A DNA stretch of 64,000 nucleotides from assembly GCA_023257255.1 (NCBI GenBank), contig JALRCR010000002.1:5000-68999 (forward strand), written 5' to 3'. The notes beneath the pieces were generated by a model, which searched no databases, was not told the DNA's origin, and was given only the letters and a program-made list of their open reading frames with translations. Below, in pieces: positions 2,355 through 27,333 of the stretch; the first letter of the stretch is position 1; each line of letters begins with the position of its first letter. The stretch comes from Gammaproteobacteria bacterium (GTDB taxonomy: Bacteria; Pseudomonadota; Gammaproteobacteria; Ga0077536). A program made the translations under genes and the position numbers.

Positions 2355-2610
2355 GTTGCACTGCTACGGAGGAACTCAGACCGGAGTGTAGGCGCCGCAA
2401 AGCCTGTTCGTCACCGTGTGGCCGGCCATCAAATGCTGATGCCGCACCGGTTTGGCCGCGAATGTTGAGAACTGTGCCGCAAAAATAACGCGCGCATTGC
2501 CGCCGGGGCTTGCATCGCATCCCGCAAGCGGCCACCCTCCGCGGCAGGAAAACCCAGATGCGCGCAACCAAGGGTGGTTGGGGCATGCTCGGCACCAAAG
2601 GAAAGCAAAC

Positions 2611-3363
2611 ATGATGTTTGAGCAACTGACCAATTCCCGCTCGTGGATGACGAGCGTGGCGGCGGCGGGCCTGCTGAGCCTGACGCTGACCGCCAGTGCG
2701 GCCGGTCCGACGGTCGGCCCGGAGGCGACCAGCTGGACCCTTAGTTCGTCCAGTTTCGCCTACGACTCAAGTTTTAATTTCGTGCGTAACAGCACCGACA
2801 CCGGCTGGGATCCGTGGCGCCTGACGACGACCGACCCGGGCACCATCGATGCGGTCGGCACGTTCACGATCAACAACCCCAGCGGGCTTTTCCCCGCGAT
2901 CGGCAACCCTGGTGACTGGAAAGTCGTCGCGGCGCGCATCACCGCCCGCATGGAAGACGGCGACTCGGCCCTCGGCGCGTTCGATTACAACAATCTTGCG
3001 GTGGTGGTGGGGAAGGGCAGTGCCACGCCTCTGCGCATTCCCGGCCTGTATCTGAACGGGTTCCCGAACGCGGTGGTGGCGACCGCCACCAACTCAACCT
3101 CGCTGCTCGGTAACGACGCTTTCGGGGTGAGCCTGGCGACCATGCTGGCTGGCAGCGGTTCGGCGGTGAATTTCTTCATCGACGACCTCAATGAAGGCAT
3201 GAACAACCTGTTCTTCTACAAGTCGCAGGCCTCGGTGTTCAAGCTGGAGTTTGACCTGCAACGCGCGCTGACCCCGCCGCCGGCGCCGGTACCGGTGCCA
3301 GGTGGTCTGCTGCTGCTGGGCAGTGCCCTGCTGACCGGGGTTGCGATCCGCCGCCGCAGCTAA
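2611..3363 (+). CDS. secreted hypothetical protein with a PEP-CTERM-like tripartite C-terminal sorting signal
   Basis: Start chosen at the ATG at 2611, preceded by 'AAGGAAAG'. Signal peptide 'SVAAAGLLSLTLTASAA'. C-terminus 'PPPAPVPVPGG-LLLLGSALLTGVAI-RRRS' is a Pro motif, a TM helix and a basic tail. The ORF-track extension 2452-2610 is basic, low-complexity sequence. Confidence 0.6.
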   Translation: MMFEQLTNSRSWMTSVAAAGLLSLTLTASAAGPTVGPEATSWTLSSSSFAYDSSFNFVRNSTDTGWDPWRLTTTDPGTIDAVGTFTINNPSGLFPAIGNPGDWKVVAARITARMEDGDSALGAFDYNNLAVVVGKGSATPLRIPGLYLNGFPNAVVATATNSTSLLGNDAFGVSLATMLAGSGSAVNFFIDDLNEGMNNLFFYKSQASVFKLEFDLQRALTPPPAPVPVPGGLLLLGSALLTGVAIRRRS

Positions 3364-3382
3364 GCGCTGGTTGGCGGTTTCA

Positions 3383-3410
3383 AGCGTGCGCCCGCGTCAG
3401 GGCGCACGCT
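3383..3410. terminator. perfect 11-bp inverted repeat between convergent genes (possible bidirectional terminator, no U-tract)
   Basis: AGCGTGCGCCC (3383-3393), 6-nt loop, GGGCGCACGCT (3400-3410). It overlaps the HlyD-like stop codon at 3397-3399. Confidence 0.4.
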
Positions 3411-4599
3411 CCATATTGATTCTCACCGTTTGCCCCGCCTGAAGGCCGTCGGTCACGGGCTGCCCGTCCACATCCAGCGTCACCCGGAACGGGCGGTAGG
3501 TGGTCGGTAACTGCTGCGGATTGCGCGCCTCGCGGCGTCCTACCGGCACCGTGTCGTATTCGTTAACGGGCTCATTCCAGGTCAGCGAGAGCCGACCGGT
3601 CCGTTCTCCGCCGCCCGCATTAGCCGGCAATTTAATGACCACCCGCTGACCGTCCAGTACGTCGGGCAGGTCGGCGGTTTCCAGAAAACCTTCCAGCCAG
3701 AGCTGGCGGGGATTAGTCACGGTCAGGATGACTTCGCCCAGTTTGGCGACTTCACCGGCCCGACGATGGATGGCCGTGACCACGCCGTCGATCGGCACAC
3801 TCAACGTCAGACCTGCACGGTTGCCCCGGAGGGTCGTCAGTTCAACTTCAGCCAGTTTGGCATCGGTTCGCAGGTTAACCAGCGCACTCGAGGGCCCGCT
3901 GGGGCCGCCGTCCGCGCCCTGCGCGGCGGCCTGCGACAGTTCGGCCGAGCGCGCTGCCGCGCGCGCTGAGAGCTGTGCGGTGCGCAGTCGGCCCCGCCAA
4001 ACGGCCGCTTCCTGCGCGGCCTTTTCGTATTCCGCACGCGTGACGGCGCCCAGTGCCAGCAGGCGCTTAAGTTCCTGCAGACGGGTATCTCGCATCGCGC
4101 TGGTGGTTTTCGCTTCCTCGGCCTCAGCGCTCGCCATCAGGCGATTCTGTTCGGCGCGCGCCACGTTGGCCGCCGCCTGCGATTGCTGGGCGGGGTCTGG
4201 CCGGGACTGGGCGCTGCTCGTCGCTTCCAGCTGGGCCAGCACGGCACGCCGGGCGTCCAGTCGGGCTTCGGCCATGGCGATCGCCTGCTCCAGTTCGTCG
4301 CTGGAAAGTTCAACCAGCGGCTGACCGGCGCGGACCGTGTCGCCTTCGCTGACCAGCAGTTTGGTGATGCGGGAGGCCTGCGCGGGGGCGACCCGCAGTT
4401 CCAGCGCGCGTACCCGCGCGGTGCTGCTGATCATGGTGCTGTTCCAGTACCACATACCCAGTCCCACCAGCAGCGCCAGCGCAATCAGGGCCAGGCTGGC
4501 TGCTCTGACCTGTGGGCCCCGCGGCGCCGGCTTGGGCGCTGCCGCGACCGGCGCGATGGGCGTGTTCTGGTCTGGCAGGCGATTAAAGCGAATAGCCAT
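3397..4599 (-). CDS. HlyD-family membrane fusion (periplasmic adaptor) protein
   Basis: 400 aa. N-terminal TM 'ASLALIALALLVGLGMWYW', lipoyl-like 'LLVSEGDTVRAGQPLVEL', a long Ala/Gln/Arg coiled-coil hairpin, and the second lipoyl half 'VPIDGVVTAIHRRAGEVAKLGEVILTV'. Confidence 0.85.
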   Translation of the reverse strand: MAIRFNRLPDQNTPIAPVAAAPKPAPRGPQVRAASLALIALALLVGLGMWYWNSTMISSTARVRALELRVAPAQASRITKLLVSEGDTVRAGQPLVELSSDELEQAIAMAEARLDARRAVLAQLEATSSAQSRPDPAQQSQAAANVARAEQNRLMASAEAEEAKTTSAMRDTRLQELKRLLALGAVTRAEYEKAAQEAAVWRGRLRTAQLSARAAARSAELSQAAAQGADGGPSGPSSALVNLRTDAKLAEVELTTLRGNRAGLTLSVPIDGVVTAIHRRAGEVAKLGEVILTVTNPRQLWLEGFLETADLPDVLDGQRVVIKLPANAGGGERTGRLSLTWNEPVNEYDTVPVGRREARNPQQLPTTYRPFRVTLDVDGQPVTDGLQAGQTVRINMERAP

Positions 4600-4608
4600 C
4601 GATTAGTC

Positions 4609-6972
4609 CTAGGGCGCGTTGTCGCGGCTGTTGGCGGAGTCGGCAGACGACTGGCAGGCGGCGGTGCCCGGCGCCTTGTCCAGAATCAGCGCCCGGTAGC
4701 GGTCCAGATCGTGGATGGCCACGCCCAGTACCGGCCCGGTTTCGCTGAGGTCGATCGTCAATTTGCGGAGTGCATTCTCAAATTGCTCTGGCGTTTCGTC
4801 CGGGCAGCGGTCGCCGGCGGCCGCGCTCACGCCGATCCACCAGGGGCGCCCGGTGGCGGCGATTTGCTGCCCGGCCTTGCGCAACTGGGCGTCCAGTCGC
4901 TCGCGATCGGCGCCGTAGGCCATGAACACCACGCCGCTCAGCGCGCGGGCCAGCTTGGGTAATACGGGCGGCTCCAAGCCGTCGCGCTTGGCCAGCCAGA
5001 CCGGCAGGTCGGCATACAGCGGAATTTGTCCCTCGGCGGCCTTGGCCAGTTTTTGCACCACCGCCACCAAGCCTTCCAGCAGATCTTCCTGCGCATCGCT
5101 GTCATCCCAGTCACGCAGTGCCTGCGGCTCGATGTCGAGATGCAGCGCGTCGAGTCGTCCGGTATCCGACGCGTCCCGATTGAACGCCAGCACGGTCTCG
5201 AGATAACGCAGCGCGTTGTCCTGTTTGCCAGGCCGCACCCAGGCCGGGTCGCCGGCCAGCGCGTGGATTTTCACGCCGCGGGCGTGCGCTTGTTCGATGA
5301 ATGCCACCAGCGCCGCGCGCTCGGTGGTGAGCTGGGAGGCCTTCAACGCCACGAACAGATGATCGAGGCCGCTGGCGCTGGCCCAGTCCAGCAGTTCGCG
5401 AATGGCATCGGGCTGGCCGATGAAACTGCTGCGCCAGACCCACAGCGCGCGCCCGGCGCCACCCGCCGAACTGAGCCGGGCAAGCGGGGCGCGGGACTCG
5501 AACGGAATGGCGCCGGGATCCACTGCGCTGGCCAGGGCGAGCTGCAGATTGGCCCGCTCCACCGCGTAGTGCGCAATCAGCGCCTCACGCCGGCTGCGCA
5601 GGGCACGTAACTGGTCCCGCGCTTCGCGTACCAGCAGTTCGTCCGGATCCAGCTCCTCGACCAGCGCGTCGGTGCGCAAGGCGCGAACTTTCAGCTGGTC
5701 TTCGGCCACCAGCGCACGGCGCTCGCTGGCCTCGGCGGCCTTGCGGGCGCTGGCCAGCCCGCCCTGGGCGTCGATGACGTCTAGCGCAATCTGCTGAAAG
5801 GCGTCCTCTTCGGCCAGCGCGGCTTGCGCCACCAGCGCTTCGGCCCGGTCGAGGCGGGCCCGCCGCAGCGGCACCACCAGCACCGGCACCTTGAACAGCG
5901 CGCTGATGGTGAAGCCCCGGTCAATCGAGCGCTCGTTCTTGCCGTCGGATTGACCCCATGCCGTGCGCAGGCTGATATCCGGGGTGAGGGTGTCGGTGCG
6001 CGCTCGCACCGCCGTCGCCTTCAGGACTGCCGCCCGCGCACTGGCCAGTTCCTGACGGCCCTGACGCGCTGCGGCCTGGGGATCGTCGGGCACCATCGCC
6101 ACCGGTGCTTGCGCCGCCAGCGGCAGGGCGGCCTCGACGGGGCGCTGCATCAGCGCGTTCAGCCGGCTCCGTGCCAGCATCACCTGTTGGGTGACGGCTT
6201 CGGCGCTGGATTGGGCACTGGCAATTTCAGCCTGCGCTTCGAACACCCGGGTTCGCAGAACATTGCCACCCAGCGCCAGCGTCTTCATCTGCACGCGGAA
6301 GTTATCGGCGGCCGCGAGTTCCTCCGCCAGCGCGCCGGCCTGTGCCTCACCGGCCTGCAGACGGTGGTACTGCTCAAGCGCATCGGCCAGCACGGCGCGG
6401 CGGGTGGTCGCGTAGTTGGCGAGCGCGGCGAGGAGCTCGGACTCGGCGTCGGAAATCATCGCCTTGCGCTCGACCAGGCCGCCGTACACCGACTGGGTCA
6501 GCCCGGCCAGAATGCCGAGCGGATAGAAGCGCGTCATGAGTGAGAGTTCGGGGCTCATGGACACCTTGGCTTCCCGCAGCCGGGCGCGGGCTTCGATGAC
6601 GCGGTACACCGCCGCGCGCAAATCGAGGTTCCGCGCCTTGACGGTGGCCAGCACCGCCGCCGGCGTCGTTGGGGCCGGACCCGTGTCGGCCGCAAGTTCG
6701 CCCAGCGGCGGCAAGCGGCGGTGCTCGCTTTCGGCCCGTACGGCTGCCAGCAGGTCCTGCGCACGCGCGTCACCCGCCGTGGCGCCGTCGGTCTGCTGCA
6801 AGGTCTGGGCGGCGCTGTCGGTTTGTCCCTGGGCGTAGGCCAGCAAGGCCTGCTCAAAAGGCTCGCGGTCGGGAAAGGCCAGCAAAGGCTGTAAGGGCGT
6901 GCTGGCGCACGCGCCGAGCACGCCGGCCAGCGCCACCGCGCACGCCGCTCGCCATGCCGCGCGAGGGCGCAT
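4609..6972 (-). CDS. lipoprotein: TolC/OEP-like outer-membrane factor fused to a C-terminal TIM-barrel glycoside-hydrolase-like domain
   Basis: Start set at the ATG at 6972-6970, which overlaps the GT2 stop (TAATG). Lipobox 'VLGAC'. Two halves of long helices plus beta-hairpin segments ('SLMTRFYPLGILAGLTQSVYGG', 'ISLRTAWGQSDG...GFTISALFKVPV'). C-terminal residues about 508-765 alternate beta and alpha elements ('LWVWRS', 'HLFVAL', 'KIHALAG', 'ALHLDIEP', 'GVVFMAY', 'WWIGVS', 'GVAIHDL'). Confidence 0.65.
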   Translation of the reverse strand: MRPRAAWRAACAVALAGVLGACASTPLQPLLAFPDREPFEQALLAYAQGQTDSAAQTLQQTDGATAGDARAQDLLAAVRAESEHRRLPPLGELAADTGPAPTTPAAVLATVKARNLDLRAAVYRVIEARARLREAKVSMSPELSLMTRFYPLGILAGLTQSVYGGLVERKAMISDAESELLAALANYATTRRAVLADALEQYHRLQAGEAQAGALAEELAAADNFRVQMKTLALGGNVLRTRVFEAQAEIASAQSSAEAVTQQVMLARSRLNALMQRPVEAALPLAAQAPVAMVPDDPQAAARQGRQELASARAAVLKATAVRARTDTLTPDISLRTAWGQSDGKNERSIDRGFTISALFKVPVLVVPLRRARLDRAEALVAQAALAEEDAFQQIALDVIDAQGGLASARKAAEASERRALVAEDQLKVRALRTDALVEELDPDELLVREARDQLRALRSRREALIAHYAVERANLQLALASAVDPGAIPFESRAPLARLSSAGGAGRALWVWRSSFIGQPDAIRELLDWASASGLDHLFVALKASQLTTERAALVAFIEQAHARGVKIHALAGDPAWVRPGKQDNALRYLETVLAFNRDASDTGRLDALHLDIEPQALRDWDDSDAQEDLLEGLVAVVQKLAKAAEGQIPLYADLPVWLAKRDGLEPPVLPKLARALSGVVFMAYGADRERLDAQLRKAGQQIAATGRPWWIGVSAAAGDRCPDETPEQFENALRKLTIDLSETGPVLGVAIHDLDRYRALILDKAPGTAACQSSADSANSRDNAP

Positions 6973-8279
6973 TAGTACACCTCCATCTGCGCCTGGACTT
7001 GCGCCGGGGCAAAGGGATCGCGGTAGGAGGTGCGAAAGAAAATTTCCTGCGTCAGCGCGGTCAGCCGGATCAGCTTCAGCAGGATCCGGTACAGCGGATA
7101 GACCGGCAGGCTGAGCAGCAAAGGCAGACGCCGATACTCGAAGTCGCATACCACCAGACCAATCAGCGTGCGCAGGCTCATGCTGATGTAGTGCAGCACC
7201 AGCATCGTCACCAGAATGAAGTCGTAATCGCCTTTGAAGTTCAGCAGCATGTCGACGGTGTAGATCAGCCACATGGCCGGCAATATCGCCAGAAAAAGAA
7301 AGGTGTCCAGAAACGACACAAAACTGCTGGGGCTGAAGTTGGCGAAGGTCGGGTTGAAGATGTCGCGGTGTTTACGCGCGCGGTTACGCACCAGATTGCG
7401 GTCCCAGCGCAGGCGCTGGCGAATCAGCTTGGGCACGCTGGTCGGGGCGGTGGTGCGGCAGATGCCGTCTTGCGCAAATGCGATCTGGTAGCCCAGCTTG
7501 CGAATCCGGATGGTCGCATCCGAGTCGCAGCCCGGTCCCGGCTCAAGGCCGCCCACGCTGCCCAGCAGTTCCCGCCGGTAGGCGCCGATGGCGCCGGGAA
7601 CGATCGACAGGATGCCCACTTCCGCCTTGAACCGCCGGTCCAGCGACAGACTGAGCAGGTATTCGATGGCCTGCAGGCGGGTGAGCAGCGAGGTGTTGCA
7701 GTTACGCACCGTGAGGTTGCCGCTGACGGCGCCAACCTGCGGGTCTTCAAAATGACGCACCATCTGCCACACGGTGCTGCGTTCGAGCGTGGAATCGGAA
7801 TCCATCAGCACCACGAACTCGCCGCGGGCCAGTTCCAGCCCGGCGTTAATCGCCGCCGACTTGCCCTGTCGCCGGTTCATGCGATGCACCCGCAGGTGAT
7901 AGCGCTGCGCCAGCGCCTGCATTTTCTCGCCGGTGCCGTCGGTAGAGCCGTCGTCAATGAGGATAATTTCAAGGTTCGGCCAGGTCTGCTCGCGTAGCGA
8001 GCGAACCACCTCGCCAATGGTCTCGGCTTCGTTGAGCGCCGGCACGATCACCGACACCAGCGGCGTTTCCGGCCCGAATTCGGCGGGCTCCACCATCGTC
8101 GTTTCGTGCATCCACCAGTACAGCACGGCCAGATTGGTGAAGAAGTAGCGCGGGGTTTCCAGAAACAGGAAGGCCCAGAACACCCGCACGAACTGGTCGA
8201 TGTGCAGGCTGAGCGCCCAGTCGCTGACCTCTGTCAGGTACTCGATAAACCCGTTGAAGGCGAGCGTCAGGGAGTCCAC
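6972..8279 (-). CDS. family-2 glycosyltransferase, membrane-embedded processive synthase type (PgaC/NodC/BcsA-like)
   Basis: 435 aa. N-terminal TM helices, 'VIVPALNE', 'DDGSTDGT', 'MDSDS' (DxD), 'GAIGAYRR', 'QRLRWDR' (QxxRW), then several C-terminal TM helices. Confidence 0.85.
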   Translation of the reverse strand: MDSLTLAFNGFIEYLTEVSDWALSLHIDQFVRVFWAFLFLETPRYFFTNLAVLYWWMHETTMVEPAEFGPETPLVSVIVPALNEAETIGEVVRSLREQTWPNLEIILIDDGSTDGTGEKMQALAQRYHLRVHRMNRRQGKSAAINAGLELARGEFVVLMDSDSTLERSTVWQMVRHFEDPQVGAVSGNLTVRNCNTSLLTRLQAIEYLLSLSLDRRFKAEVGILSIVPGAIGAYRRELLGSVGGLEPGPGCDSDATIRIRKLGYQIAFAQDGICRTTAPTSVPKLIRQRLRWDRNLVRNRARKHRDIFNPTFANFSPSSFVSFLDTFLFLAILPAMWLIYTVDMLLNFKGDYDFILVTMLVLHYISMSLRTLIGLVVCDFEYRRLPLLLSLPVYPLYRILLKLIRLTALTQEIFFRTSYRDPFAPAQVQAQMEVY

Positions 8280-8286
8280 GCCCGCC

Positions 8287-9390
8287 TCATTCAGCCGACG
8301 GGTCGGCGGCGGGCGCGGGCTCGGCGGCGACCTGTGTCTGGGCGTTGCTCAGGCTGGCGCGTGCGTCGTCAAACACGGCCCGGGCGGTGGCGTGGCTGTC
8401 GCTCAAGGTCACCAGCCCGCAGTCGAGCGGCAGCGGTTCGCCGCCTTCGCCGGCGAGGCGGTCGACCGTCTCCTGGAGCCGCTTGAAGGCAAAGGGCGCA
8501 CCCGCGCCGTCGGTATCCACCAGCAGGGCGGCCAGACAGTCTTCGCGAAAGAGCGCCGCACAGTCGCAGTCGCGCAGGGAATCTTTGGCGCCGGCCACCA
8601 GACGGCGCATGGCGTCGTTGGCGGCGTTTGAGCCGGCAGGAAAATCGCTTTCGCGAAACGCTACCAGCATCAGGCTGAGCGGGCGTTTGTAGCGTTTGCT
8701 CGCCGCGACTTCCTGCGTCAGGCGTTCATCAAAGTAGGAAAACGAATACAGGCCGAATTCGGTATCGACCAGACTGCCGGCGCCGCGCGCATCGCCCAGT
8801 TCGCCCCGGTTGACGGCCAGCCCGCCGCGGGCATTCAGCCGGTAGGCGTAGACGGTGCGCAGTTCGGCGCGATCGGCAGGGTGCTGCTTACCGCATTTCA
8901 GGCAGAGGCAGCGGGTGTCGGGTTCGCTGCTAACGTAGTTGCAGGCCCGGCACAGATAGCTGCTGGCCGGGCGCTCGTAGTCCACGCCGATGTGCCGCAA
9001 CTGGTGGCCGCACTTCCGGCACGTATAGCGCACGCCGTCCTGAAACTCGCTTTCCGGCGCGGTATGGCCGCAGCGGAAGTGATGCAGCAGGTCGCCAATT
9101 TCCACATTGCTGCTCGCGCAAGCCGGGCAGGTTTCGCGAAACATCAGGGCATGGTGGTGGCAGTCGGGACAGTAGTACCCGCGCTCGGCGAACTGCCGTT
9201 CCAGATAACCCAGCTCGCAGAGTTGTTCCAGGTCTGCTTCGAGTTCTGCCGGGCTGAGGTTGAGACCAGACGCGTCCGGATAACTGAAGCCGCTGCTGAC
9301 GCCCGGGTCTGGTACTGGGCTTAGAAGTTGCTGGTGCGCGTTGGCCGCCAGGCTGAGCAGCGCCAGATAGCGGTCGCGAGGGGAAAGCAT
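8287..9390 (-). CDS. multi-zinc-ribbon (TackOD1-like) protein with a degenerate GGDEF domain that keeps an RxxD I-site; candidate c-di-GMP receptor
   Basis: 367 aa. Cys pairs CPDC (74-77), CPAC (88-91), CRKC (124-127), CRAC (147-150) and CLCLKC (161-166). GGDEF-like start 'GLYSFSYFDERLTQEVAASKRYKRPLSLMLVAF'. The A-site position reads 'REDCL' instead of GG(D/E)EF. 'RDCD' (res 273-276, nt 8563-8574) sits exactly 5 residues upstream of it. Confidence 0.6.
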   Translation of the reverse strand: MLSPRDRYLALLSLAANAHQQLLSPVPDPGVSSGFSYPDASGLNLSPAELEADLEQLCELGYLERQFAERGYYCPDCHHHALMFRETCPACASSNVEIGDLLHHFRCGHTAPESEFQDGVRYTCRKCGHQLRHIGVDYERPASSYLCRACNYVSSEPDTRCLCLKCGKQHPADRAELRTVYAYRLNARGGLAVNRGELGDARGAGSLVDTEFGLYSFSYFDERLTQEVAASKRYKRPLSLMLVAFRESDFPAGSNAANDAMRRLVAGAKDSLRDCDCAALFREDCLAALLVDTDGAGAPFAFKRLQETVDRLAGEGGEPLPLDCGLVTLSDSHATARAVFDDARASLSNAQTQVAAEPAPAADPSAE

Positions 9391-9522
9391 GGTCGGTCAA
9401 ATCCTTGGATAAATCCTGAGCGGCCTGAGCATGCCCGTCGAGGGCACAACAAACTTGCACGCACGCTAATGCTGCGCGCGCACTTTTACAATCCGTTGTC
9501 CTGAGTTTTGTGGGCGCTCTCC

Positions 9523-11262
9523 TCAGGCTGTGCCACCGCGCAGGATGCGGCCAGGGCGCGCGCCCGTATCCTGCCCCGCGCGTGTGACAAATTGCCCCCG
9601 CACGCAGGTGCCGACATAGCCGCTGACCTGTTCGGTCAGGCGCGGCATGCCGGCGGGCAGGTCGTAGACCATGGCGGGTGCGGCGGTCGCGAGGCGGCTC
9701 AGGTCGATGAGGTTGAGGTCGGCGCGCAGGCCGGGGAGCAGGCGTCCGCGATCGCGAAATCCGAACAGGTCGGCGTTGGCCCCGCTCAGCTTGTGGACCA
9801 CATATTCCAGCGGCAGATGGTGTGCGCTCTGCGGGTCCGTGTCGCGCACCCAGCGAGTCAGCATGTAGCTGTGCATGCCGGCGTCGGCGATGAAGCGCAC
9901 GTGGGCGCCGGCGTCGCTCAAGCCCAGCGCGGAGAGCGGATGGCGCAGCATGGCGTGCAGGGCGTTGGCGTTACCTTCGGCGTAGTTCACGCCGAAGTGG
10001 GTGAGGATGGCGCGGCCGTTGTTTTGCAGCAGCAGGTCATAGGCCACCGCTTGCGGCGTGCGCCCGGTGCGCCGCGCGATTTCAGCCACCGAGTTTTCCC
10101 GCGGCGGGGTGTAGTCGATCGGCGAACCGGCGGCGTAGGTGTGTTCCCACAGCACCGGATTTTTGTACATCAGTGAAAAGCCGGTGTCGTTAGGGTCCAC
10201 ATCGGCCAGCAGGCGCGCGCGCACTTCGGGGTTGGCCAGCGCGGCGTAGCGTGCGGCAAAGGGCAGGTCGCGCAGCGGCTGGTAGCTCGGCATGAAGCGC
10301 CAGGGATGCTCGCCCTCAAAGCTGAACAGGATGGAGATCGGGCGCCCGGAAACCTGCGGAATCAGGCGGTGACCGTCGCGCGCGGCGGCTTCGCACACCG
10401 CGAGCTGGCGTTGCCACTGGGCCGGGTCGAGGTTGTGTTGTAGCAGCAGAAACATCACCGCCGATCCGGAGCGGGCCGCCACGTTGCGCATCAGCTGCAT
10501 TTCGCGGTCGAGTCCTTCAAGGTCTTCGCCCACGATGCCGGCATTCACCATTTCGAGCAGCCCGTGACCGCTGGCCTTGACCGCGCCGGCGAGCGCGGCA
10601 AGCTCGTCTTCGGCGGCGAAAGTGCCCGGCACCGGTCGCCCGTCGACGGCGATATGGATCGCCGTGCGCGAACTCGACAGGCCAACCGCGCCGGCCGCCA
10701 TGGCGTCCCGGGTCAGTCGCGCCATCGCCGCGATGTCCTCGCCCGTCGCATTTTCATTGGCCGCGCCGCGTTCGCCCATCACATAGGCGCGCAGGGCACC
10801 GTGCGCCAGCATGGCCGCGAGGTCGAAGGCCCGCGGGGTGGCATCCAGCGCGTCGAGGTATTGCGGAAAGCTCTCCCAGTTCCACTGCATCCCGGCTTCC
10901 AGCGAGGCGCCGGGGATGTCTTCCACCCCTTCCATCAGGCCGATCAGCCACTGCTGCTGGCTTGGTCGGGCGGGCGCAAAACCCACCCCGCAGTTGCCCA
11001 TGATGGCGGTGGTCACGCCGTGACGCAGCGAGGGCATTAGCACCGGGTCCCAGCTGGCCTGTCCGTCGTAGTGGGTATGAATGTCGACCCAGCCGGGTGT
11101 GACCAGCAGGCCGTCAGCGTCGACTTGTTCTTTTGCCCGGCCCAGATGCGTGCCGATGGCGGCAATCTTGCCGTCGCGGATCGCCACATCGGCGGTGCGC
11201 GGCGCGGCGCCCGTGCCGTCAACCACCGTACCGCCTCGAATGAGGGTGTCGAACTCGGCCAT
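9523..11262 (-). CDS. N-acyl-D-amino-acid deacylase (D-aminoacylase) family amidohydrolase
   Basis: Start at ATG 11262, preceded by AGGAG. 'DTLIRGGTVVDGTGAAPRTADVAIRDGKIAAIG', 'LLVTPGWVDIHTHYDGQ'. The longer track ORF would overlap the upstream gene. Confidence 0.8.
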   Translation of the reverse strand: MAEFDTLIRGGTVVDGTGAAPRTADVAIRDGKIAAIGTHLGRAKEQVDADGLLVTPGWVDIHTHYDGQASWDPVLMPSLRHGVTTAIMGNCGVGFAPARPSQQQWLIGLMEGVEDIPGASLEAGMQWNWESFPQYLDALDATPRAFDLAAMLAHGALRAYVMGERGAANENATGEDIAAMARLTRDAMAAGAVGLSSSRTAIHIAVDGRPVPGTFAAEDELAALAGAVKASGHGLLEMVNAGIVGEDLEGLDREMQLMRNVAARSGSAVMFLLLQHNLDPAQWQRQLAVCEAAARDGHRLIPQVSGRPISILFSFEGEHPWRFMPSYQPLRDLPFAARYAALANPEVRARLLADVDPNDTGFSLMYKNPVLWEHTYAAGSPIDYTPPRENSVAEIARRTGRTPQAVAYDLLLQNNGRAILTHFGVNYAEGNANALHAMLRHPLSALGLSDAGAHVRFIADAGMHSYMLTRWVRDTDPQSAHHLPLEYVVHKLSGANADLFGFRDRGRLLPGLRADLNLIDLSRLATAAPAMVYDLPAGMPRLTEQVSGYVGTCVRGQFVTRAGQDTGARPGRILRGGTA

Positions 11263-12337: not shown

Positions 12338-12961
12338 TTAGCGGTCGGGCGGGTTGTCGGCGATGCGCCACATATACAGCGCCAGCACCGAGCGATGTGG
12401 GGCGAACAGCGCAGCCGCACTGGACAGGTCATAGCGGGACTGCGTCACCAGAAACCGCTCCAGCGTTTTGCGGACCGCCAAGTCGCCGAGCGGCCAGATG
12501 TCAGGGTCGCGAAAATAGAACAGCGCTAGCATGTCGGCGGTCCACGGCCCGATGCCGCGCAGGGCGGTCAGCTCGATGGCGCGCGCGGCCGGCTCGAGGC
12601 GCGCCAGACGCTGACGCTTGAGCACGCCGGCCGCATCGGCTTCGGCCAGCGCCTTGAGGGTTTTCAGTTTGCCTGCCGACAGCCCACAAGCCAGCAGGGT
12701 GGCGTCGGGCAAGTTAAGCGCGAGGGCGGGAATAGATTGCTGCTCGGCCTTGCCCAGCGCCTCGACCCGGCCCCAGATGGTGCCGGCGGCGCGGGTCGAC
12801 AACTGCTGGCCGACGACCACCCGCGCAAGGTAGCGCGCCAGCGGTTGCTGATGCCGACTCGGCCAGTCCGGCGGGCCGACCGCGTCCATCGCCTGCGCCA
12901 AGGGGCGCGACACCCGCCGCGCGGTGCGCACAAAATCCGGATGAAGCAGGGCGAGATCCAT
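12338..12961 (-). CDS. DNA-3-methyladenine glycosylase II-like (HhH-GPD superfamily)
   Basis: 207 aa. 'LRGIGPWTADMLALFYFRDPDIWPLGDLAVRK' is a helix-hairpin-helix followed by the catalytic Asp region. Confidence 0.75.
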   Translation of the reverse strand: MDLALLHPDFVRTARRVSRPLAQAMDAVGPPDWPSRHQQPLARYLARVVVGQQLSTRAAGTIWGRVEALGKAEQQSIPALALNLPDATLLACGLSAGKLKTLKALAEADAAGVLKRQRLARLEPAARAIELTALRGIGPWTADMLALFYFRDPDIWPLGDLAVRKTLERFLVTQSRYDLSSAAALFAPHRSVLALYMWRIADNPPDR

Positions 12962-13102
12962 GGCCGGATTGTCGGCCGCAGGTCTGGCTTAAACAAGTTA
13001 TTGAAGGCGCGCGCGTCGGCGCGCTTTATCAGTAGAATGCCGTCTATCGGGGTCGTCGCATGGGCGCGGCCGTCATCTGGACTAACTCGGGAGAAGCAAA
13101 GC

Positions 13103-14929
13103 ATGGGCTGGCAACAGACAATTTTGCGGGTCAATCTCACCAACGGGACCTGCACGACGGAACCCCTCAACATGGACTGGGCCCAGCACTATCTGGGTTC
13201 ACGCGGACTGGCCACCAAATATCTGATGGCCGAAATCGACCCCAAGGTCGACCCGCTCTCGCCGGGCAACAAGCTCATCATCGCCACCGGCCCCTTGACC
13301 GGGACCGGCGCCTCCACCGGCGGACGCTGGACGGCGGTGACCAAAGGCGCCCTTACCGGCGCCATCGCCAGCTCCAACTCGGGCGGACAGTTCGGCGGCG
13401 AACTCAAGATGGCCGGCTACGATCTGGTCATTCTCGAAGGCCGTTCACCCACCCCGGTTTATCTGTACATCGAAGACGAGCGCGTGCAGCTGCTGCCGGC
13501 CGAGCACCTGTGGGGCCGGTCGGTGTGGGAAATCGAGCCGGCGATTAAAGACGCCCACAACGACCCGCTGATCCGGATTGCCTCGATCGGACAGGCCGGT
13601 GAGTACGGCAACCGCTACGCCTGCATCGTGAACGATTTGCACCGTGCCGCCGGCCGCTCCGGCGTGGGCGCGGTGATGGGCTCGAAGAACCTGAAAGCCA
13701 TCGCGGTTCGCGGGACCCGGGGCGTCAAGCCGCACGACCCGGCCAAGTTCATGGCGGCGGTCAAGGTGGCGACCGACGCGCTGGCCAGCAACAAGGGCCG
13801 CAAGGGCATGACCAGCGACGGCACCATCGCGATGATGGACGTCACCGGCGGCTTCGGTGCCTTGCCCACGCGCAACAACCGCGAAGTGCAGTTCGAGGAT
13901 GCCGGCAAGCTGAACGCCAAGGCCATGAAGTCGCCCAACGAGAACGGGCACACCAACCTCATCCAGAACGCCGCCTGCTTCGCCTGCACCATTGGCTGCG
14001 GGCGCATTTCGCACATCGACCCGCAGCACTTCTCGGTCAAGGACAAACCGCAGTACCAGAAAGCCTCGGGCGGTCTGGAGTACGAAACCGCTTACGCGCT
14101 CGGCTCGGCGGTGGGCGTGGGCGATATGGACGCCGCGACCTACGCCGGCTTCCTGTGTAACGAATACGGCATGGACCCGATCTCCTTCGGCGGCACGCTG
14201 GCGGCGGCGATGGAGCTCTTCACGGTCGGCGCCATTACGCTCGAGCAGACCGGCGGCGTAGATCTCTCCTTCGGTAACGCCGAGGCGCTCTGCCTGATGG
14301 CCGAACTGGCAGGCAAGGGCGAAGGCTTTGGCCGCGATCTGGGTCTCGGCTCCAAGCTGCTGTGCGAGAAATACGGCCGGCCCGAACTGTCGATGGCGGT
14401 GAAGGGGCAGGAGTTCGCGGCCTACGACGGTCGCGCCATGCAGGGCATGGGCTTGGGCTACGCCACCAGCAACCGCGGCGCCTGCCATCTGCGCGCCAAT
14501 CCCTACGGCGCGGACTTCACCAGCACCGCGACCGAAGGCAAGGCCGAGGTCGTCAAGACTTCGCAGGACCTCATCTCCGCGATCGATGCGACGGGCCTGT
14601 GCCTGTTCACCCTGCATTCCGGCGCGACGCCCGAGCACTACGCCATGCAGATCGACGGCGCCTGTGAAGGCGACTGGACGCTGCCGCGTTTCCTCGAAAC
14701 CGGTGAGCGCATCTGGAACCTCGAGCGGCAGTTCAATCTGGCCGCGGGTCTGACCGCCAAGGACGACACCCTGCCCAAGCGCATCCTGGAAGAACCGGCG
14801 CCCAGCGGGGTGGCGAAAGGACTGGTCAGCGGTCTGAAGACCATGCTGCCCGAGTACTACCAGCTGCGCGGTTGGGGCGAAGACGGCGTGCCGACCGGCG
14901 AGACGCTGTCTCGGCTCGGACTCAAATAG
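13103..14929 (+). CDS. aor: aldehyde:ferredoxin oxidoreductase (tungsto/molybdopterin AOR family)
   Basis: Start at ATG 13103, after 'GGGAGAAG'. 'ILRVNLTNGTCTTEPL', 'GSRGLATKYL', 'AAGRSGVGAVMGSKNLKAIAVRG'. [4Fe-4S] ligands 'CFACTIGCGR' plus the later 'DATGLCLF'. Confidence 0.9.
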   Translation: MGWQQTILRVNLTNGTCTTEPLNMDWAQHYLGSRGLATKYLMAEIDPKVDPLSPGNKLIIATGPLTGTGASTGGRWTAVTKGALTGAIASSNSGGQFGGELKMAGYDLVILEGRSPTPVYLYIEDERVQLLPAEHLWGRSVWEIEPAIKDAHNDPLIRIASIGQAGEYGNRYACIVNDLHRAAGRSGVGAVMGSKNLKAIAVRGTRGVKPHDPAKFMAAVKVATDALASNKGRKGMTSDGTIAMMDVTGGFGALPTRNNREVQFEDAGKLNAKAMKSPNENGHTNLIQNAACFACTIGCGRISHIDPQHFSVKDKPQYQKASGGLEYETAYALGSAVGVGDMDAATYAGFLCNEYGMDPISFGGTLAAAMELFTVGAITLEQTGGVDLSFGNAEALCLMAELAGKGEGFGRDLGLGSKLLCEKYGRPELSMAVKGQEFAAYDGRAMQGMGLGYATSNRGACHLRANPYGADFTSTATEGKAEVVKTSQDLISAIDATGLCLFTLHSGATPEHYAMQIDGACEGDWTLPRFLETGERIWNLERQFNLAAGLTAKDDTLPKRILEEPAPSGVAKGLVSGLKTMLPEYYQLRGWGEDGVPTGETLSRLGLK

Positions 14930-23894: not shown

Positions 23895-26372
23895 TCAGCG
23901 GAACGGCTTCCACATGAGGATCAGTTTGGGCATCAGGGTCAGCGCGCCCAGAATAGCCACCGTCATCGCGACTGTCGTCAGGATGCCGAAGATGATGCTG
24001 GGCACGAAGTTCGACATCACCAGAATCGAAAAACCGAAACACACCACCAGGGTGGTGTAGAAACCGGCTTTGGCGATATTGGAATGGCAGTAGTACATGG
24101 TGGCGACGCCGTCGCGCAGGCGCTGGAACTCCACGCCATAGCGATAGAGATAGTGGATGCAGTCTTCCACCGCGATGCCAATGGTCAGCGAGGCCACCAT
24201 GATGGTCATCATGTCGAGCGGAATGCCCATCCAGCCCATGAAGCCCAGCACGCCGCCGGCGGCGACGATGTTGGGGATCACGCCGATCAAGGCTGCAAGG
24301 AACGAGCGGAACAGCACCCACAGCACCAGCAGCACCCCGAGAATCGACCAGCCGAGCGAGGCAATCTGCGAGGAGAACAGGCTTTGCAGCATGTTGTTGT
24401 AGAGCACCAGCAGACCGACCATTTCGAACTCGTCGGACTTCAGTCCCAAATCGTGCTGCAGGCCGTCGCGGATTTGCTGAAGCAGCGCCTGCCGGCGCAG
24501 GTCGGGCATCGAATCGAGAATGCGCAGCGAGATCCGCGCCTCGTCGGCGTCGATCGAAATATAGGGCGAGATCATCTCGTCCTTGAGGTTGTCCGGCAGC
24601 CGCTTGTAGATGACGTTGAGTTCGAAAGGATCAAACTCGCGACCCTTGTTGAGGTCTTCGGCGACCCGCACCATCGACGCCAGCGAGGTGACTTTGCCCA
24701 CCCCGGGGATGGTTTCCAGATAGTCGTGAACCTGCTTGATGCGCGCCACTTTTTCGGGCGTGAACCAGTAGTCGGATTTTTGGGTCGGCTCGTCTTCAAA
24801 CATCGCAGACAGCTCGGCGTCTTCGCCTTCGGCGGTGGTAGCGCCGGCGTCGGTCGGCGGTGGCGGGAACTTCAACACGATATCGATAGGCGTGGTGCCG
24901 CCCAGAGTTTCATCGACCTGCTTGAGGCCTTGATAAATCTCCGTCGACTGCTTGAAGTAGTTGATGAAGCTGTTTTCGACTTCGAGCTTCAAGGTGCCCA
25001 TCACGCCCAGCACGGCGATCAGCATGCTGGCGCCGAGCACGATGCCACCGTGGCGGTCGGTAAACCGTGCCAGCGTTTGCGTGAAGCCGGCATTGCCTTC
25101 GTCGTTGACCTTGAGCGGGCGCTTTGCCATCAGCAGCATCACGCAGGGGATGAAGGTGAACAGCACGATGTAGACGATCACCAGACTGAGCGACATCATC
25201 CAGCCGAAGTCGACGATCGGCCGGATATCGCTGGTCGCCAGCGACGCAAAGCCCACGATGGAGGTCAGGTTGCTGTACAGACAGGGCTTGGCCATGTCGC
25301 GCGCGGTCATCCGCACCAGCTCAAACTGCGAGTAGTCGGGATGCTCGCGGTACAACTCCATGTAGTGAACGATCAAATGGATGTTGATGGAGATGGTGAG
25401 GATCAGGGTCAGCGCAATGAAGTTCGACGAGATGACCGTCAGCTCCCAGCCGACCAGCCCCAGCGTGCCCAGAATCACCACCGTGCAGTACACGCAGGTG
25501 GCGAGCGGAATCATCACCCAGCGTACTTCGCGGAACAGATAGCCCAGCATTGTGATCGCCAGCACCAGCGCTCCCAGACCAAAAACCATGATGTCGCTGC
25601 GCACGAAGCTGATGAGGTCGTTGGTGATCATCGGCAGGCCGCCGAGGTTGATCTGCGCCTGGTCCCGGTGCTTGTCGAGCACGCTGCGCACCTGCTCAAT
25701 GGCCGCGCGGTTGGTCTCTTCCAGTTGTCGCTTGCCCAGCTGGTAGGCGGGCTCCACCACCGCCAGACGCTCGGCCTCTTCCTTGCTGAGGGTGCCGGTG
25801 GCGCGCTTGTAGACCAGATCGCCGCGGTCAACGCGGATTTTTGCGAAGTCAGGATGGTCCTTGAACATCACCCGGATGGCGGTCGTCCGGCCGTCTTCGC
25901 TAATCGCCACCTTGCGATACAGCGGGCTTGAAAGCAGTTCTTCGCGCGCTTTCGCCAGATCCACTTCCGGAGATTCCAGCGTGCGGTATTTGGTTGCCAC
26001 TTCGGAGAGGCTGGCCTCGACGTTTTTCACCAGCGGCACGTCGAGAATGGTCAGCACCGATTCCACTTCCGGCAGGGCTTTCAAGTCGGCACGCAGGCTG
26101 GCAATGATGGCGCGCGAGGCGGGCTCGAACAGGTCGGCTTTGGGGGTCACGGTGACAAACAGGAAGTCGCGCGTCGGGTAGCGCTTGGTCATGTCGCGCC
26201 AGGCCTGGTAGTCGGCGTCGTTGTCGAGCAGCAGCGAGTCGGCCGAGGCATCGATGCGGAACTGGCTGATGCCGGCGCCAAACACCACCAGCAAGAGCGC
26301 CAGCGTCAGCAGGACGAGGCGGGGGTAGGCAAGGATGGTACGGTCGTAGAGGTCGGACAGGGCTCGCAGCAT
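23895..26372 (-). CDS. RND-superfamily exporter, COG1033/MMPL (HpnN-like) type
   Basis: 825 aa. Two repeats, each a soluble loop followed by a 5-6 TM bundle ('MVFGLGALVLAITMLGYLF', 'GVIPNIVAAGGVLGFMGWMGIPLDMMT'). Confidence 0.8.
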   Translation of the reverse strand: MLRALSDLYDRTILAYPRLVLLTLALLLVVFGAGISQFRIDASADSLLLDNDADYQAWRDMTKRYPTRDFLFVTVTPKADLFEPASRAIIASLRADLKALPEVESVLTILDVPLVKNVEASLSEVATKYRTLESPEVDLAKAREELLSSPLYRKVAISEDGRTTAIRVMFKDHPDFAKIRVDRGDLVYKRATGTLSKEEAERLAVVEPAYQLGKRQLEETNRAAIEQVRSVLDKHRDQAQINLGGLPMITNDLISFVRSDIMVFGLGALVLAITMLGYLFREVRWVMIPLATCVYCTVVILGTLGLVGWELTVISSNFIALTLILTISINIHLIVHYMELYREHPDYSQFELVRMTARDMAKPCLYSNLTSIVGFASLATSDIRPIVDFGWMMSLSLVIVYIVLFTFIPCVMLLMAKRPLKVNDEGNAGFTQTLARFTDRHGGIVLGASMLIAVLGVMGTLKLEVENSFINYFKQSTEIYQGLKQVDETLGGTTPIDIVLKFPPPPTDAGATTAEGEDAELSAMFEDEPTQKSDYWFTPEKVARIKQVHDYLETIPGVGKVTSLASMVRVAEDLNKGREFDPFELNVIYKRLPDNLKDEMISPYISIDADEARISLRILDSMPDLRRQALLQQIRDGLQHDLGLKSDEFEMVGLLVLYNNMLQSLFSSQIASLGWSILGVLLVLWVLFRSFLAALIGVIPNIVAAGGVLGFMGWMGIPLDMMTIMVASLTIGIAVEDCIHYLYRYGVEFQRLRDGVATMYYCHSNIAKAGFYTTLVVCFGFSILVMSNFVPSIIFGILTTVAMTVAILGALTLMPKLILMWKPFR

Positions 26373-26475
26373 GGCACTCGGAAACGCGTTGGGGTTGAGG
26401 GGCTTGGCGGGCGCATTGTACGGCCGCCGGCGCCCCGCGCCGAGTGATTCCTGAGCCGGCGCGCGGGCGCGCTCG

Positions 26476-27333
26476 TTAACGCGCCTGCTGCAGGGCCTCG
26501 ATCCGCTCGCTCAAGGGCGGATGGGTGGCAAACAGGTGGGCCAGACCGCCCAGCATGTTGCCGCTGATGCCAAAGGCGGCCATTTCGGCCGGCAGCGGCG
26601 CGGTCTGCCCCCGACGCAGGCGCTCGAGGGCGGCGATCATCTTCATCCGGCCGGCGAGGCTGGCGCCACCGGTATCCGCCCGGAACTCGCGCTGCCGCGA
26701 GAACCAGCACACCACGATGGACGCCAGCACGCCCAGCACCGACTGCGCCAGCATGTAACCAAGAAAGTAGCCCATGCCACGCTGGCCGTCGCGGTTGTCG
26801 CGGTCGAGGAAGCTTGCAATCAGGTTGGCAAAGACCATCACGAAGGTGTTAACCACGCCCTGAATCAGCGTCAGCGTCACCATGTCGCCGTTAGCGACGT
26901 GGGCCACTTCATGGCCCAGCACGGCTTCGGCCTCGTCCTGCGTCATCTGCTGGAGCAAGCCCGTGCTGACCGCGACCAGCGCGTGATTGCGGTCGGAGCC
27001 GGTGGCAAAGGCATTGGGCGTCGGGGAATCAAAAATGGCCACGTCCGGCATGCCGATACCGGCCTGTTTGGCCTGACGGGCGACGGTGTCCACCAGCCAG
27101 CGTTCGGTCGGTGAGGCGGGGTTGGCGATTAACTGCGCGCCGGTGGAGCGTAGCGCCATCGACTTTGACAGCAGCAAGGAAATGAACGAGCCGCCCATGC
27201 CGATGAGCGCGGTCATGAAGAGCCAGGGCAGGGTGTTCGTGCCGGTCCGATTGAGGCCCAGCAGCTGGAGGACCACCGAGAGCACCAGCACGACCGCGAG
27301 GTTGGTGCCTAGGAAGAGGAATAAACGATTCAT
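26476..27333 (-). CDS. htpX: zinc metalloprotease HtpX (M48)
   Basis: Start at ATG 27333 (GGAGG upstream). 'MNRLFLFLGTNLAVVLVL' and the 'HEVAHVANGDM' HExxH motif. Confidence 0.9.
   Translation of the reverse strand: MNRLFLFLGTNLAVVLVLSVVLQLLGLNRTGTNTLPWLFMTALIGMGGSFISLLLSKSMALRSTGAQLIANPASPTERWLVDTVARQAKQAGIGMPDVAIFDSPTPNAFATGSDRNHALVAVSTGLLQQMTQDEAEAVLGHEVAHVANGDMVTLTLIQGVVNTFVMVFANLIASFLDRDNRDGQRGMGYFLGYMLAQSVLGVLASIVVCWFSRQREFRADTGGASLAGRMKMIAALERLRRGQTAPLPAEMAAFGISGNMLGGLAHLFATHPPLSERIEALQQAR

Follow-up and report, generated by a model that had tools for sequence, protein, structure and literature searches.

The four genes and their products

The window analysed here, a stretch of 64,000 nucleotides from the metagenome-assembled genome (MAG) of a gammaproteobacterium, carries on its minus strand a compact cassette of four genes, which is the subject of this report. 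In the order in which they would be transcribed, they encode a putative receptor of 367 amino acids (9390..8287) composed of a TackOD1 domain and a degenerate GGDEF domain, an inner-membrane family-2 glycosyltransferase (GT2) of 435 amino acids (8279..6972), a TolC-family lipoprotein fused to a TIM barrel (6972..4609; 787 amino acids counted from the ATG within TAATG), and a HlyD/EmrA-type membrane-fusion protein, here called the adaptor, of 400 amino acids (4599..3397). The receptor and GT2 genes are separated by 7 nt (8280-8286), the GT2 stop and the start of the outer-membrane-factor gene overlap in TAATG (4 nt; 6974..6970), and 9 nt (4600-4608) lie between the outer-membrane-factor and adaptor genes. 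The strand, coordinates, spacers and overlap can all be read directly in the sequence as the first-pass annotation of the window had reported them, and Pfam and NCBIfam searches agree with its four domain assignments (TackOD1/GGDEF, GT2, OEP and HlyD). The spacers of 7-9 nt and the stop/start overlap indicate that all four genes are translationally coupled. Each of the four products is found in identical form in public gene calls, including those from many metagenomes.

A terminator-like hairpin on the minus strand (9457..9483), recognized by its match to the consensus only, has a stem of ten pairs, 7 of them G-C, followed by a weak T tail. Its position (9483..9457) is within the 132 nt that separate the upstream amidohydrolase gene from the receptor gene, which suggests that the cassette is a transcription unit of its own. 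Given this hairpin upstream, the tight junctions and a convergent downstream neighbour, the four genes look like one transcription unit.

The first protein matches Pfam TackOD1 at residues 9-185 (3.9e-44) and Pfam GGDEF at residues 209-353 (3.2e-5). TackOD1 is a Cys-rich zinc-ribbon domain, and 11 of its Cys and His residues are invariant or nearly so in an alignment of 18 family sequences. It was described as an output domain of archaeal response regulators that also occurs in some bacteria, and its describers considered its function obscure (PMC5847659). No hydrophobic segment was found by a hydropathy scan, and the protein, having no transmembrane segment, is predicted to be cytoplasmic. 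Its GGDEF domain contains the I-site-like sequence R273-D-C-D276 (RxxD; 8563..8574, minus strand), with R273 and D276 invariant in the 18 homologues, and five residues further downstream REDCL occupies the position of GG[DE]EF. When the profile of the receptor family was aligned with solved cyclases, its RxxD fell on the I-site and its "eestl" (REDCL in the window protein) fell on GGEEF, while the metal- and GTP-binding residues upstream (the DxD...FK..ND..GH region) were not conserved. Of 83 aligned receptor homologues, 67 have preserved RxxD, those that have not being mostly from Bacteroidota, and an intact GG[DE]EF occurs in none of the 83. Both features expected of an active diguanylate cyclase, an intact GG[DE]EF and the metal/GTP residues, are absent from the window protein. 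Loss of the A-site everywhere, combined with retention of the I-site RxxD, is the signature of a catalytically dead, I-site-type effector of cyclic di-GMP (c-di-GMP), and by this signature the first gene appears to encode such an effector. The first-pass annotation had likewise taken the degenerate GGDEF domain for that of a receptor, and the invariance of RxxD in the 18-sequence alignment and the lost A-site speak for that assignment.

Most of the receptor homologues (L012-L091 and P0022-P0025) have an extra N-terminal domain of about 130 amino acids that is absent from the window protein. In a few of them it is a Pfam receiver domain, and in most it has no Pfam match. The receiver domains echo the reported binding of a stand-alone receiver, CheY3, to MxdA, the first protein of the Shewanella Mxd system discussed below. 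In several Bacteroidota loci (e.g. L049, L052, L056, L057, L066, L068, L075 and L078), the Arg of RxxD is replaced, giving LxxD, FxxD, TxxD or KxxD, and the whole cassette is kept; this suggests that in those lineages the module may work without c-di-GMP input.

The GT2 matches Pfam Glycos_transf_2 (9.2e-38) and Chitin_synth_2 (2.1e-11). Its best NCBIfam model is PgaC_IcaA (TIGR03937), matched over nearly the full length at 168 bits, which is below the 422-bit cut-off; the NodC model scores 103 bits and the cellulose synthase (CelA) models 38-44 bits. The motifs DDGS109, DSD160, DSD252 and QRLRW288 are present, so that the processive-synthase motifs named by the first-pass annotation (DDGS109, DSD160 and QRLRW288) are indeed there. 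The same annotation had placed transmembrane helices on both sides of the catalytic domain. Those on the C-terminal side are clear (321-339 and 360-378), whereas the hydrophobic segment on the N-terminal side is weaker (Kyte-Doolittle 1.39). No PilZ match was found in the protein, which ends about 30 amino acids past its last transmembrane helix. Judged by these models and motifs, the GT2 is classed as a processive enzyme of the PgaC/NodC/chitin-synthase-like kind. Because its nearest models are synthases of poly-N-acetylglucosamine (PNAG), chitooligosaccharide and chitin, and because the barrel of the third protein has a D-x-E of the type of glycoside hydrolase family 18 (GH18) at strand 4, the polymer probably contains N-acetylhexosamine (HexNAc); this is the least secure step in our interpretation.

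The outer-membrane-factor protein begins with a lipoprotein signal peptide (6907..6972, minus strand), seen in the translation as a hydrophobic segment at residues 5-23 and the lipobox L19-G-A-C22. A TolC-family domain occupies about residues 100-485 (5518..6675, minus strand; Pfam OEP, 1.6e-16, in two stretches). In an AlphaFold2 (AF2) model of the full-length protein there are long helical hairpins, and the beta-strand regions are of low confidence. A Foldseek search with this model retrieved OprJ, OprN, OprM, TolC, VceC and CusC, aligned along some 450 columns at target-normalised template-modelling scores (TM-scores) of about 0.6. The OEP repeats, hairpins and lipoprotein signal by which the TolC/outer-membrane-factor family is recognized are all found in the window protein. 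Between the lipobox and the first OEP repeat is a conserved segment of about 80 amino acids (residues 25-100; window 6700-6900) with the motif PFEQAL.AYA.G.., which forms two short helices in the model. It is found in closer relatives and is missing from loci L008 and L009.

The last ~285 residues of this protein had no match in Pfam, in NCBIfam or, by phmmer, in the PDB. Since these sequence-only searches gave nothing, only structure prediction and Foldseek were informative for the region. AF2 predicts a C-terminal (beta/alpha)8 TIM barrel with eight strands at residues 501-775 (4648..5472, minus strand; predicted local distance difference test (pLDDT) 92.6, predicted TM-score 0.90), referred to below as the C-terminal domain (CTD). 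Its top Foldseek matches were GH18 endo-beta-N-acetylglucosaminidases and chitinases, the C-terminal domain of PgaB, and GH84 enzymes, with TM-scores of 0.5-0.6. A putative catalytic motif, D608-A-L-H611-L-D613-I-E615 (5128..5151, minus strand), lies at the C-terminal end of barrel strand 4 (residues 109-112 in the CTD numbering of the model), and H611, L612, D613 and E615 are invariant across all of the fused and free barrel homologues compared. The spacing from D608 to E615 is what we take, by our own reading, to be that of the GH18 motif DxxDxDxE with its second Asp changed to His (DxxHxDxE). The Pfam GH18 model covered the motif region of one distant homologue at a sub-threshold 6.6e-5 and did not match the window protein. 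The free barrel homologues of Pseudomonas have a signal peptide, and their genes lie between those for the GT2 and the adaptor; for these reasons the barrel is placed in the periplasm, where we infer from the model that it is the glycoside hydrolase of the system. The fusion of a lipoprotein outer-membrane factor to a TIM barrel, proposed from the sequence in the first-pass annotation, is upheld by the lipobox, the OEP match, AF2 and Foldseek. Of the further guess that the barrel is a hydrolase, the fold has been substantiated by the eight-stranded, high-confidence model, and the activity continues to be a prediction.

The adaptor matches Pfam HlyD_3 (6.6e-13), HlyD_D23 and Biotin_lipoyl_2, and its best NCBIfam models are the EmrA/EmrK subfamily and type_I_hlyD. 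It has one N-terminal transmembrane anchor at residues 31-49. No ABC, MFS or RND gene was found in the cassette or among its flanking genes in the window. The sole RND-superfamily gene found in the window is an MMPL gene (23898-26510, minus strand), which is 14.5 kb from the cassette and outside the operon.

Distribution and genomic surroundings

A genome scan of one genome per species, for which the trimmed receptor alignment A6 was used (the broad alignment A5 being too divergent), returned at least 589 TackOD1 relatives, and the best 80 loci were profiled with hidden Markov models (HMMs) from the window's family. A GT2 gene is adjacent in 73 of these 80 loci, a protein with the barrel was found in 57, and an adaptor likewise in 57. 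All four parts occur together in 47 of the 80 loci, and these counts hold despite many truncated contigs and at least three gene orders. The four-gene sets have 20-45% identity and come from many phyla, a recurrence that puts the arrangement far beyond chance. Represented among the best 80 loci are the Planctomycetota, KSB1, Calditrichota, Desulfoluna (Desulfobacterota), Omnitrophota, Hydrogenedentota and Bacteroidota, the gammaproteobacterial genera Rheinheimera, Thiodiazotropha and Shewanella, and other taxa besides. All-against-all clustering of 2009 flanking open reading frames (ORFs) revealed no conserved pump or other fifth gene beside 88 related loci. The largest cluster was found at 18 of the 88, and its one annotated member is a hybrid histidine kinase. 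The absence of an ABC, RND or MFS gene, stated for the operon in the first-pass annotation, is in this sense a property of the related loci as well.

Seven matches to close relatives of the outer-membrane-factor::barrel protein were found in a word-indexed search, and in the contigs of close relatives that were examined all four genes recur in unchanged order at identities as low as 34%, with differing flanks. Farther receptor homologues (27-32% identity) again lie in cassettes of receptor, GT2, a protein of about 700 amino acids, and adaptor. The barrel-bearing protein is usually 650-1050 amino acids long among the best 80 loci, and its fusion to an outer-membrane factor recurs, with Pfam OEP matches in examples from Desulfoluna, Calditrichota and Hahellaceae. 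An iterated profile recruited 59 of 60 N-terminal halves of barrel fusions, a count that has to be read with the caution that such a profile may over-recruit on helix-rich sequence. In a search of representative sequences, the barrel was found at the C-terminus of proteins of about 700-850 amino acids in hundreds of 50%-identity clusters; the total of 3239 overstates the size of the barrel family, as the profile also spanned the outer-membrane-factor half. With no Pfam model of its own, the barrel family is a candidate for a new glycoside-hydrolase family.

Many free barrel homologues, of about 276 amino acids, occur in Pseudomonas species. The Pseudomonas mohnii cassette (L010, and L011 from a metagenome; ~6277-10953) consists of receptor, GT2, free barrel and adaptor genes with no outer-membrane-factor gene. 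A cassette of this form is found in many Pseudomonas species, and its channel is either supplied in trans or not needed. Two other loci have a second copy of the barrel a few kb from a cassette with a fused copy. In L029 it is a stand-alone ORF of 296 amino acids (2839-3726), and in L040 it is the C-terminal half of an ORF of 527 amino acids (5835-7415, minus strand). A different gene order, GT2-receptor-fusion-adaptor, is seen in L019, L022, L023, L027, L031 and L034, from Desulfoluna and relatives and from Hydrogenedentota. The fusion protein of these six loci has about 990-1140 amino acids, including an extra N-terminal region of about 300 amino acids before the OEP repeats.

On its flanks in the window the cassette has genes for an α/β-hydrolase, two proteins without a family match, an Amidohydro_3 enzyme, a zinc dehydrogenase, an HhH-GPD glycosylase, an aldehyde:ferredoxin oxidoreductase and a hybrid histidine kinase. 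The remainder of the window is ordinary chromosome, with nusA-infB-truB-pnp, a class A penicillin-binding protein and a sigma factor. We considered the upstream Amidohydro_3 enzyme as a deacetylase partner of the system and rejected it: its gene adjoins the cassette only in the window and in L003, other genes intervene in L001, the gene is absent from L006, and in the window the hairpin separates the two. The convergent gene downstream (2452..3363, plus strand; likely start near 2611) is 33 nt from the adaptor stop. Its product is a secreted protein that has a signal peptide and a C-terminus, VPVPGGLLLLGSALLTGVAIRRRS, resembling a sorting tail of the PEP-CTERM type. The protein belongs to no Pfam family, its gene keeps the same position in L001, L003, L006 and L013, and a paralogous relationship with the TIM barrel was ruled out (hhalign probability 0.06%). 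The aldehyde:ferredoxin oxidoreductase gene (12737-14929, plus strand; AFOR_N/AFOR_C, 1.7e-121) is situated between the HhH-GPD and hybrid histidine kinase genes. These two are adjacent in the otherwise syntenic L003, and the oxidoreductase gene therefore looks like a lineage-specific insertion.

Proposed mechanism and competing explanations

We consider it fairly probable that the operon encodes an Mxd-type, synthase-dependent exopolysaccharide machine in which the GT2 is linked through the adaptor to a TolC-type channel without a pump. The TackOD1/dead-GGDEF protein, which would not synthesize c-di-GMP, may sense it through RxxD, as its motif and the comparison with MxdA suggest, and would activate the inner-membrane GT2. 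The GT2 would then polymerize a UDP-sugar and thread the chain through its own transmembrane pore. By joining the GT2 to the dedicated, trimeric TolC-family lipoprotein channel, the single-pass HlyD-type adaptor could allow the chain to cross the periplasm and the outer membrane with polymerization as the force, in place of a pump driven by ATP or the proton-motive force. We propose this conduit because the gene content is conserved across phyla. The periplasmic barrel, a separate protein in Pseudomonas and in other bacteria attached to the channel, would be the hydrolase of the system and may trim the polymer or clear the conduit in the manner of BcsZ, the PgaB C-terminal domain, PelA or XcsC.

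Several points weigh against this interpretation. The locus is that of an uncultured MAG and is known from its sequence, and a direct synthase-adaptor-TolC conduit is still a proposal even for the Xcs and Bgs systems (PMC12430437, PMC13438883). With 168 bits against the 422 of the PgaC equivalog cut-off, the GT2 falls far short, and its sugar is therefore not fixed by the match. The TM-scores of the barrel, at 0.5-0.6, are modest, and unrelated TIM barrels (SfnG and UVDE) are among its Foldseek matches; with His as the second Asp of the GH18 motif, both the hydrolase activity and the substrate are predictions. What links the cassette to Mxd is its gene content and a single Shewanella locus (L069), not the sequences of strain MR-1. 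The CTD is missing from L069 and from some further loci, and the outer-membrane factor is missing from the Pseudomonas cassettes, so that neither part is universally required in cis. Lastly, the MMPL gene 14.5 kb away would be the candidate if a pump acting in trans were suspected.

Such a pump would be expected if the adaptor and outer-membrane factor were an ordinary efflux or type-I pair, served by an ABC, MFS or RND transporter encoded elsewhere and exporting an adhesin, small molecule or glycolipid, with the GT2 either co-regulated or modifying the cargo. MFS and ABC pumps are the usual partners of the EmrA/EmrK and type-I HlyD proteins that are the adaptor's best models, the distant MMPL gene is at hand, and the Sinorhizobium authors themselves could not exclude an indirect role of TolC in beta-glucan production (PMC13438883). 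We nevertheless regard this explanation as very unlikely, given that no pump is conserved beside the 88 loci, that the GT2, adaptor and outer-membrane-factor::CTD genes stay together through gene rearrangements, that the outer-membrane factor is fused to a barrel resembling carbohydrate enzymes, and that the overlap and short spacers couple the four genes translationally. The product could also be a glycan or glycolipid anchored in the periplasm or outer membrane, which the barrel would retain or remodel as a lectin-like binding module or transglycosylase instead of hydrolysing it. Proteins with the GH18 fold include inactive lectins, the barrel has the His substitution and no Pfam match to a glycoside hydrolase, and its structural neighbour, the C-terminal domain of PgaB, was for a long time taken to be a binding module. 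The invariance of D613 and E615 in every fused and free homologue compared is, however, as expected of a catalytic pair, QRLRW and a transmembrane layout like that of PgaC point to a processive synthase that couples synthesis to translocation, and Shewanella Mxd mutants lose matrix-dependent three-dimensional biofilm and aggregation (PMC3691769), all of which makes an anchored product distinctly unlikely in our view.

Regulation, too, may be other than we propose. The first gene may not encode a c-di-GMP receptor in this organism, control being exerted through the TackOD1 zinc ribbon (by redox state, metal or a partner) or by a receiver acting in trans, with the GGDEF domain as a scaffold. This would accord with the extra N-terminal domain of most homologues, in some of them a Pfam receiver domain, with the binding of the receiver protein CheY3 by MxdA (PMC7666153), with the replacement of RxxD in Bacteroidota loci that keep the whole cassette, and with the occurrence of TackOD1 without GGDEF as an output domain of archaeal response regulators (PMC5847659). 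We think it unlikely, since RxxD is strictly conserved in the window protein, 67 of 83 homologues have it as well, and the loss of the catalytic motif everywhere completes the pattern of an I-site effector. Control through TackOD1 or a receiver and control by c-di-GMP are in any case not mutually exclusive.

Only tentatively do we extend the Mxd-type interpretation to the claim that such cassettes form a distinct, phylum-spanning class of synthase-dependent exopolysaccharide secretion systems, Shewanella Mxd included. Each would have a PgaC-like synthase in physical contact with a HlyD adaptor and with a TolC-type channel of its own, and no energised pump; the channel would bear a tethered hydrolase from a hitherto unrecognised GH18-like family, and a TackOD1/dead-GGDEF protein would be the c-di-GMP gate. 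A role for TackOD1 is suggested by the present observations, and if the claim of a distinct class is true, this would be its first assigned function. The class would also lend operon-level support to the unvalidated model of export through synthase, membrane-fusion protein and TolC.

Relationship to known export systems

Textbook synthase-dependent systems (cellulose, alginate, PNAG and Pel) export their polymers through a porin scaffolded by tetratricopeptide repeats (TPR). The PNAG systems PgaABCD and IcaADBC resemble the window cassette in that its GT2 aligns with PgaC/IcaA over nearly its full length and its barrel has a fold like that of the PgaB C-terminal (GH153) domain, whereas export from the window system would be through an adaptor and TolC-type channel instead of the PgaA TPR-porin. 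No gene for PgaD, a CE4 deacetylase or the PgaA TPR-porin was found in the cassette or its flanks, and the GT2 score is below that expected of a PgaC equivalog. The likeness to Pel is in the receptor: in PelD, as in Listeria PssE, a GGDEF domain without catalytic activity has kept RxxD and serves as the gate of a polysaccharide glycosyltransferase. The partner domains of PelD are, however, transmembrane and GAF domains as against the soluble TackOD1 zinc ribbon, and the export machinery differs too. The window receptor has neither a transmembrane segment nor GAF, the glycosyltransferase is a GT2 where Pel has PelF (GT4), and there are no Pel genes, such as those for PelG or the export parts PelB and PelC, in the cassette or its flanks.

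Export without a pump has been proposed for cyanobacterial cellulose, where a review describes an XcsAB-TolC route, citing Maeda 2018 (PMC12430437). The review adds that the model of synthase, membrane-fusion protein and TolC lacks validation, in part because TolC is never encoded with the synthase, and that the genes are not in one operon (PMC12430437). Xcs follows the logic proposed for the window cassette, with a c-di-GMP-responsive GT2, a HlyD-like adaptor, a TolC-like channel, a glycoside hydrolase (XcsC) and no pump. It differs in having a BcsA-like synthase that itself contains a PilZ domain, an endoglucanase (XcsC) unfused to TolC, and a TolC encoded elsewhere, which the review itself sees as a weak point of the model. 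The window has instead a PgaC-like GT2, a separate receptor protein, and an in-operon channel fused to a hydrolase-like domain.

For the mixed-linkage beta-glucan of Sinorhizobium, a tripartite BgsBA-TolC complex has been proposed in which the housekeeping TolC is genetically required, and production of the glucan is controlled by c-di-GMP (PMC13438883). A c-di-GMP-activated GT2 and a HlyD adaptor are encoded in one operon, as we propose for the window, and the synthase is again BcsA-like, with no dedicated channel, hydrolase or separate receptor. BgsA itself reportedly binds c-di-GMP. The BcsA-like GT2 with PilZ or a C-terminal c-di-GMP region that characterizes Xcs and Bgs is absent from the window. 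What it has in common with both is the joint encoding of synthase and HlyD adaptor, a channel of the TolC family and the absence of a dedicated pump, and unlike in Xcs and Bgs the channel is encoded in the operon. A channel gene coupled to the synthase gene and fused to a putative hydrolase is the genetic linkage that the synthase-adaptor-TolC model has been missing, and compact four-gene units of this kind offer themselves for reconstitution.

The first-pass annotation had presented the cassette as an undescribed combination with BgsA/BgsB as its closest precedent. What it observed is confirmed, and most of its functional interpretation holds; to call the system unprecedented goes too far. 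The idea of a GT2 that uses a HlyD adaptor and TolC without a pump had already been published for XcsAB-TolC (PMC12430437) and BgsAB-TolC (PMC13438883), and the core of the cassette matches the content and order of Shewanella mxdABCD. In the literature searched we found no description of an in-operon outer-membrane factor fused to a GH18-like barrel of a family without a Pfam model, of the TackOD1 identity of the receptor, or of the phylum-wide conservation of the four-part module.

The closest relationship is with the mxdABCD operon of Shewanella oneidensis MR-1 (SO4180-SO4177). MxdA is a diguanylate-cyclase-like protein that was shown to bind c-di-GMP and has CheY3 and a cyclase as interaction partners. 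The other three products are the membrane GT2 MxdB, the efflux pump component homologue MxdC and the conserved hypothetical protein MxdD; aggregation and three-dimensional biofilm are lost in mxdA and mxdB mutants (PMC3691769, PMC7666153, PMC11395469). The window operon has the same core content and order, with a degenerate-GGDEF effector, a GT2 and an efflux adaptor. In both operons the product of the first gene is a GGDEF-like protein whose active-site motif is non-canonical; in the window protein REDCL stands for GG[DE]EF and RxxD is kept, and the sequence suggests an effector role. The GT2 gene follows directly and the adaptor gene is in the same operon, with the outer-membrane-factor::CTD gene between the two in the window. 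In the Mxd literature found, neither an outer-membrane factor nor a TIM-barrel or glycoside-hydrolase partner is described, and a TackOD1 domain of MxdA is not discussed. The window receptor also differs in being without the ~130-amino-acid N-terminal extension of the Shewanella and Pseudomonas forms.

A locus of Shewanella sp. (L069) carries the same trio, namely a TackOD1 protein (2e-61) with a weak GGDEF match, then a GT2, then a HlyD protein, and has no barrel gene. Against the HMMs of the window's family these three score 271 bits (receptor), 389 bits (GT2) and 51 bits (adaptor). An exact look-up of the L069 proteins returned generic names only, and a primer for the MR-1 mxd promoter had no match in metagenome contigs. 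The shared gene content and order, together with this locus, strongly suggest that the cassette belongs to the Mxd family. The Shewanella Mxd biofilm operon, itself poorly understood, is linked by this finding to a large family.

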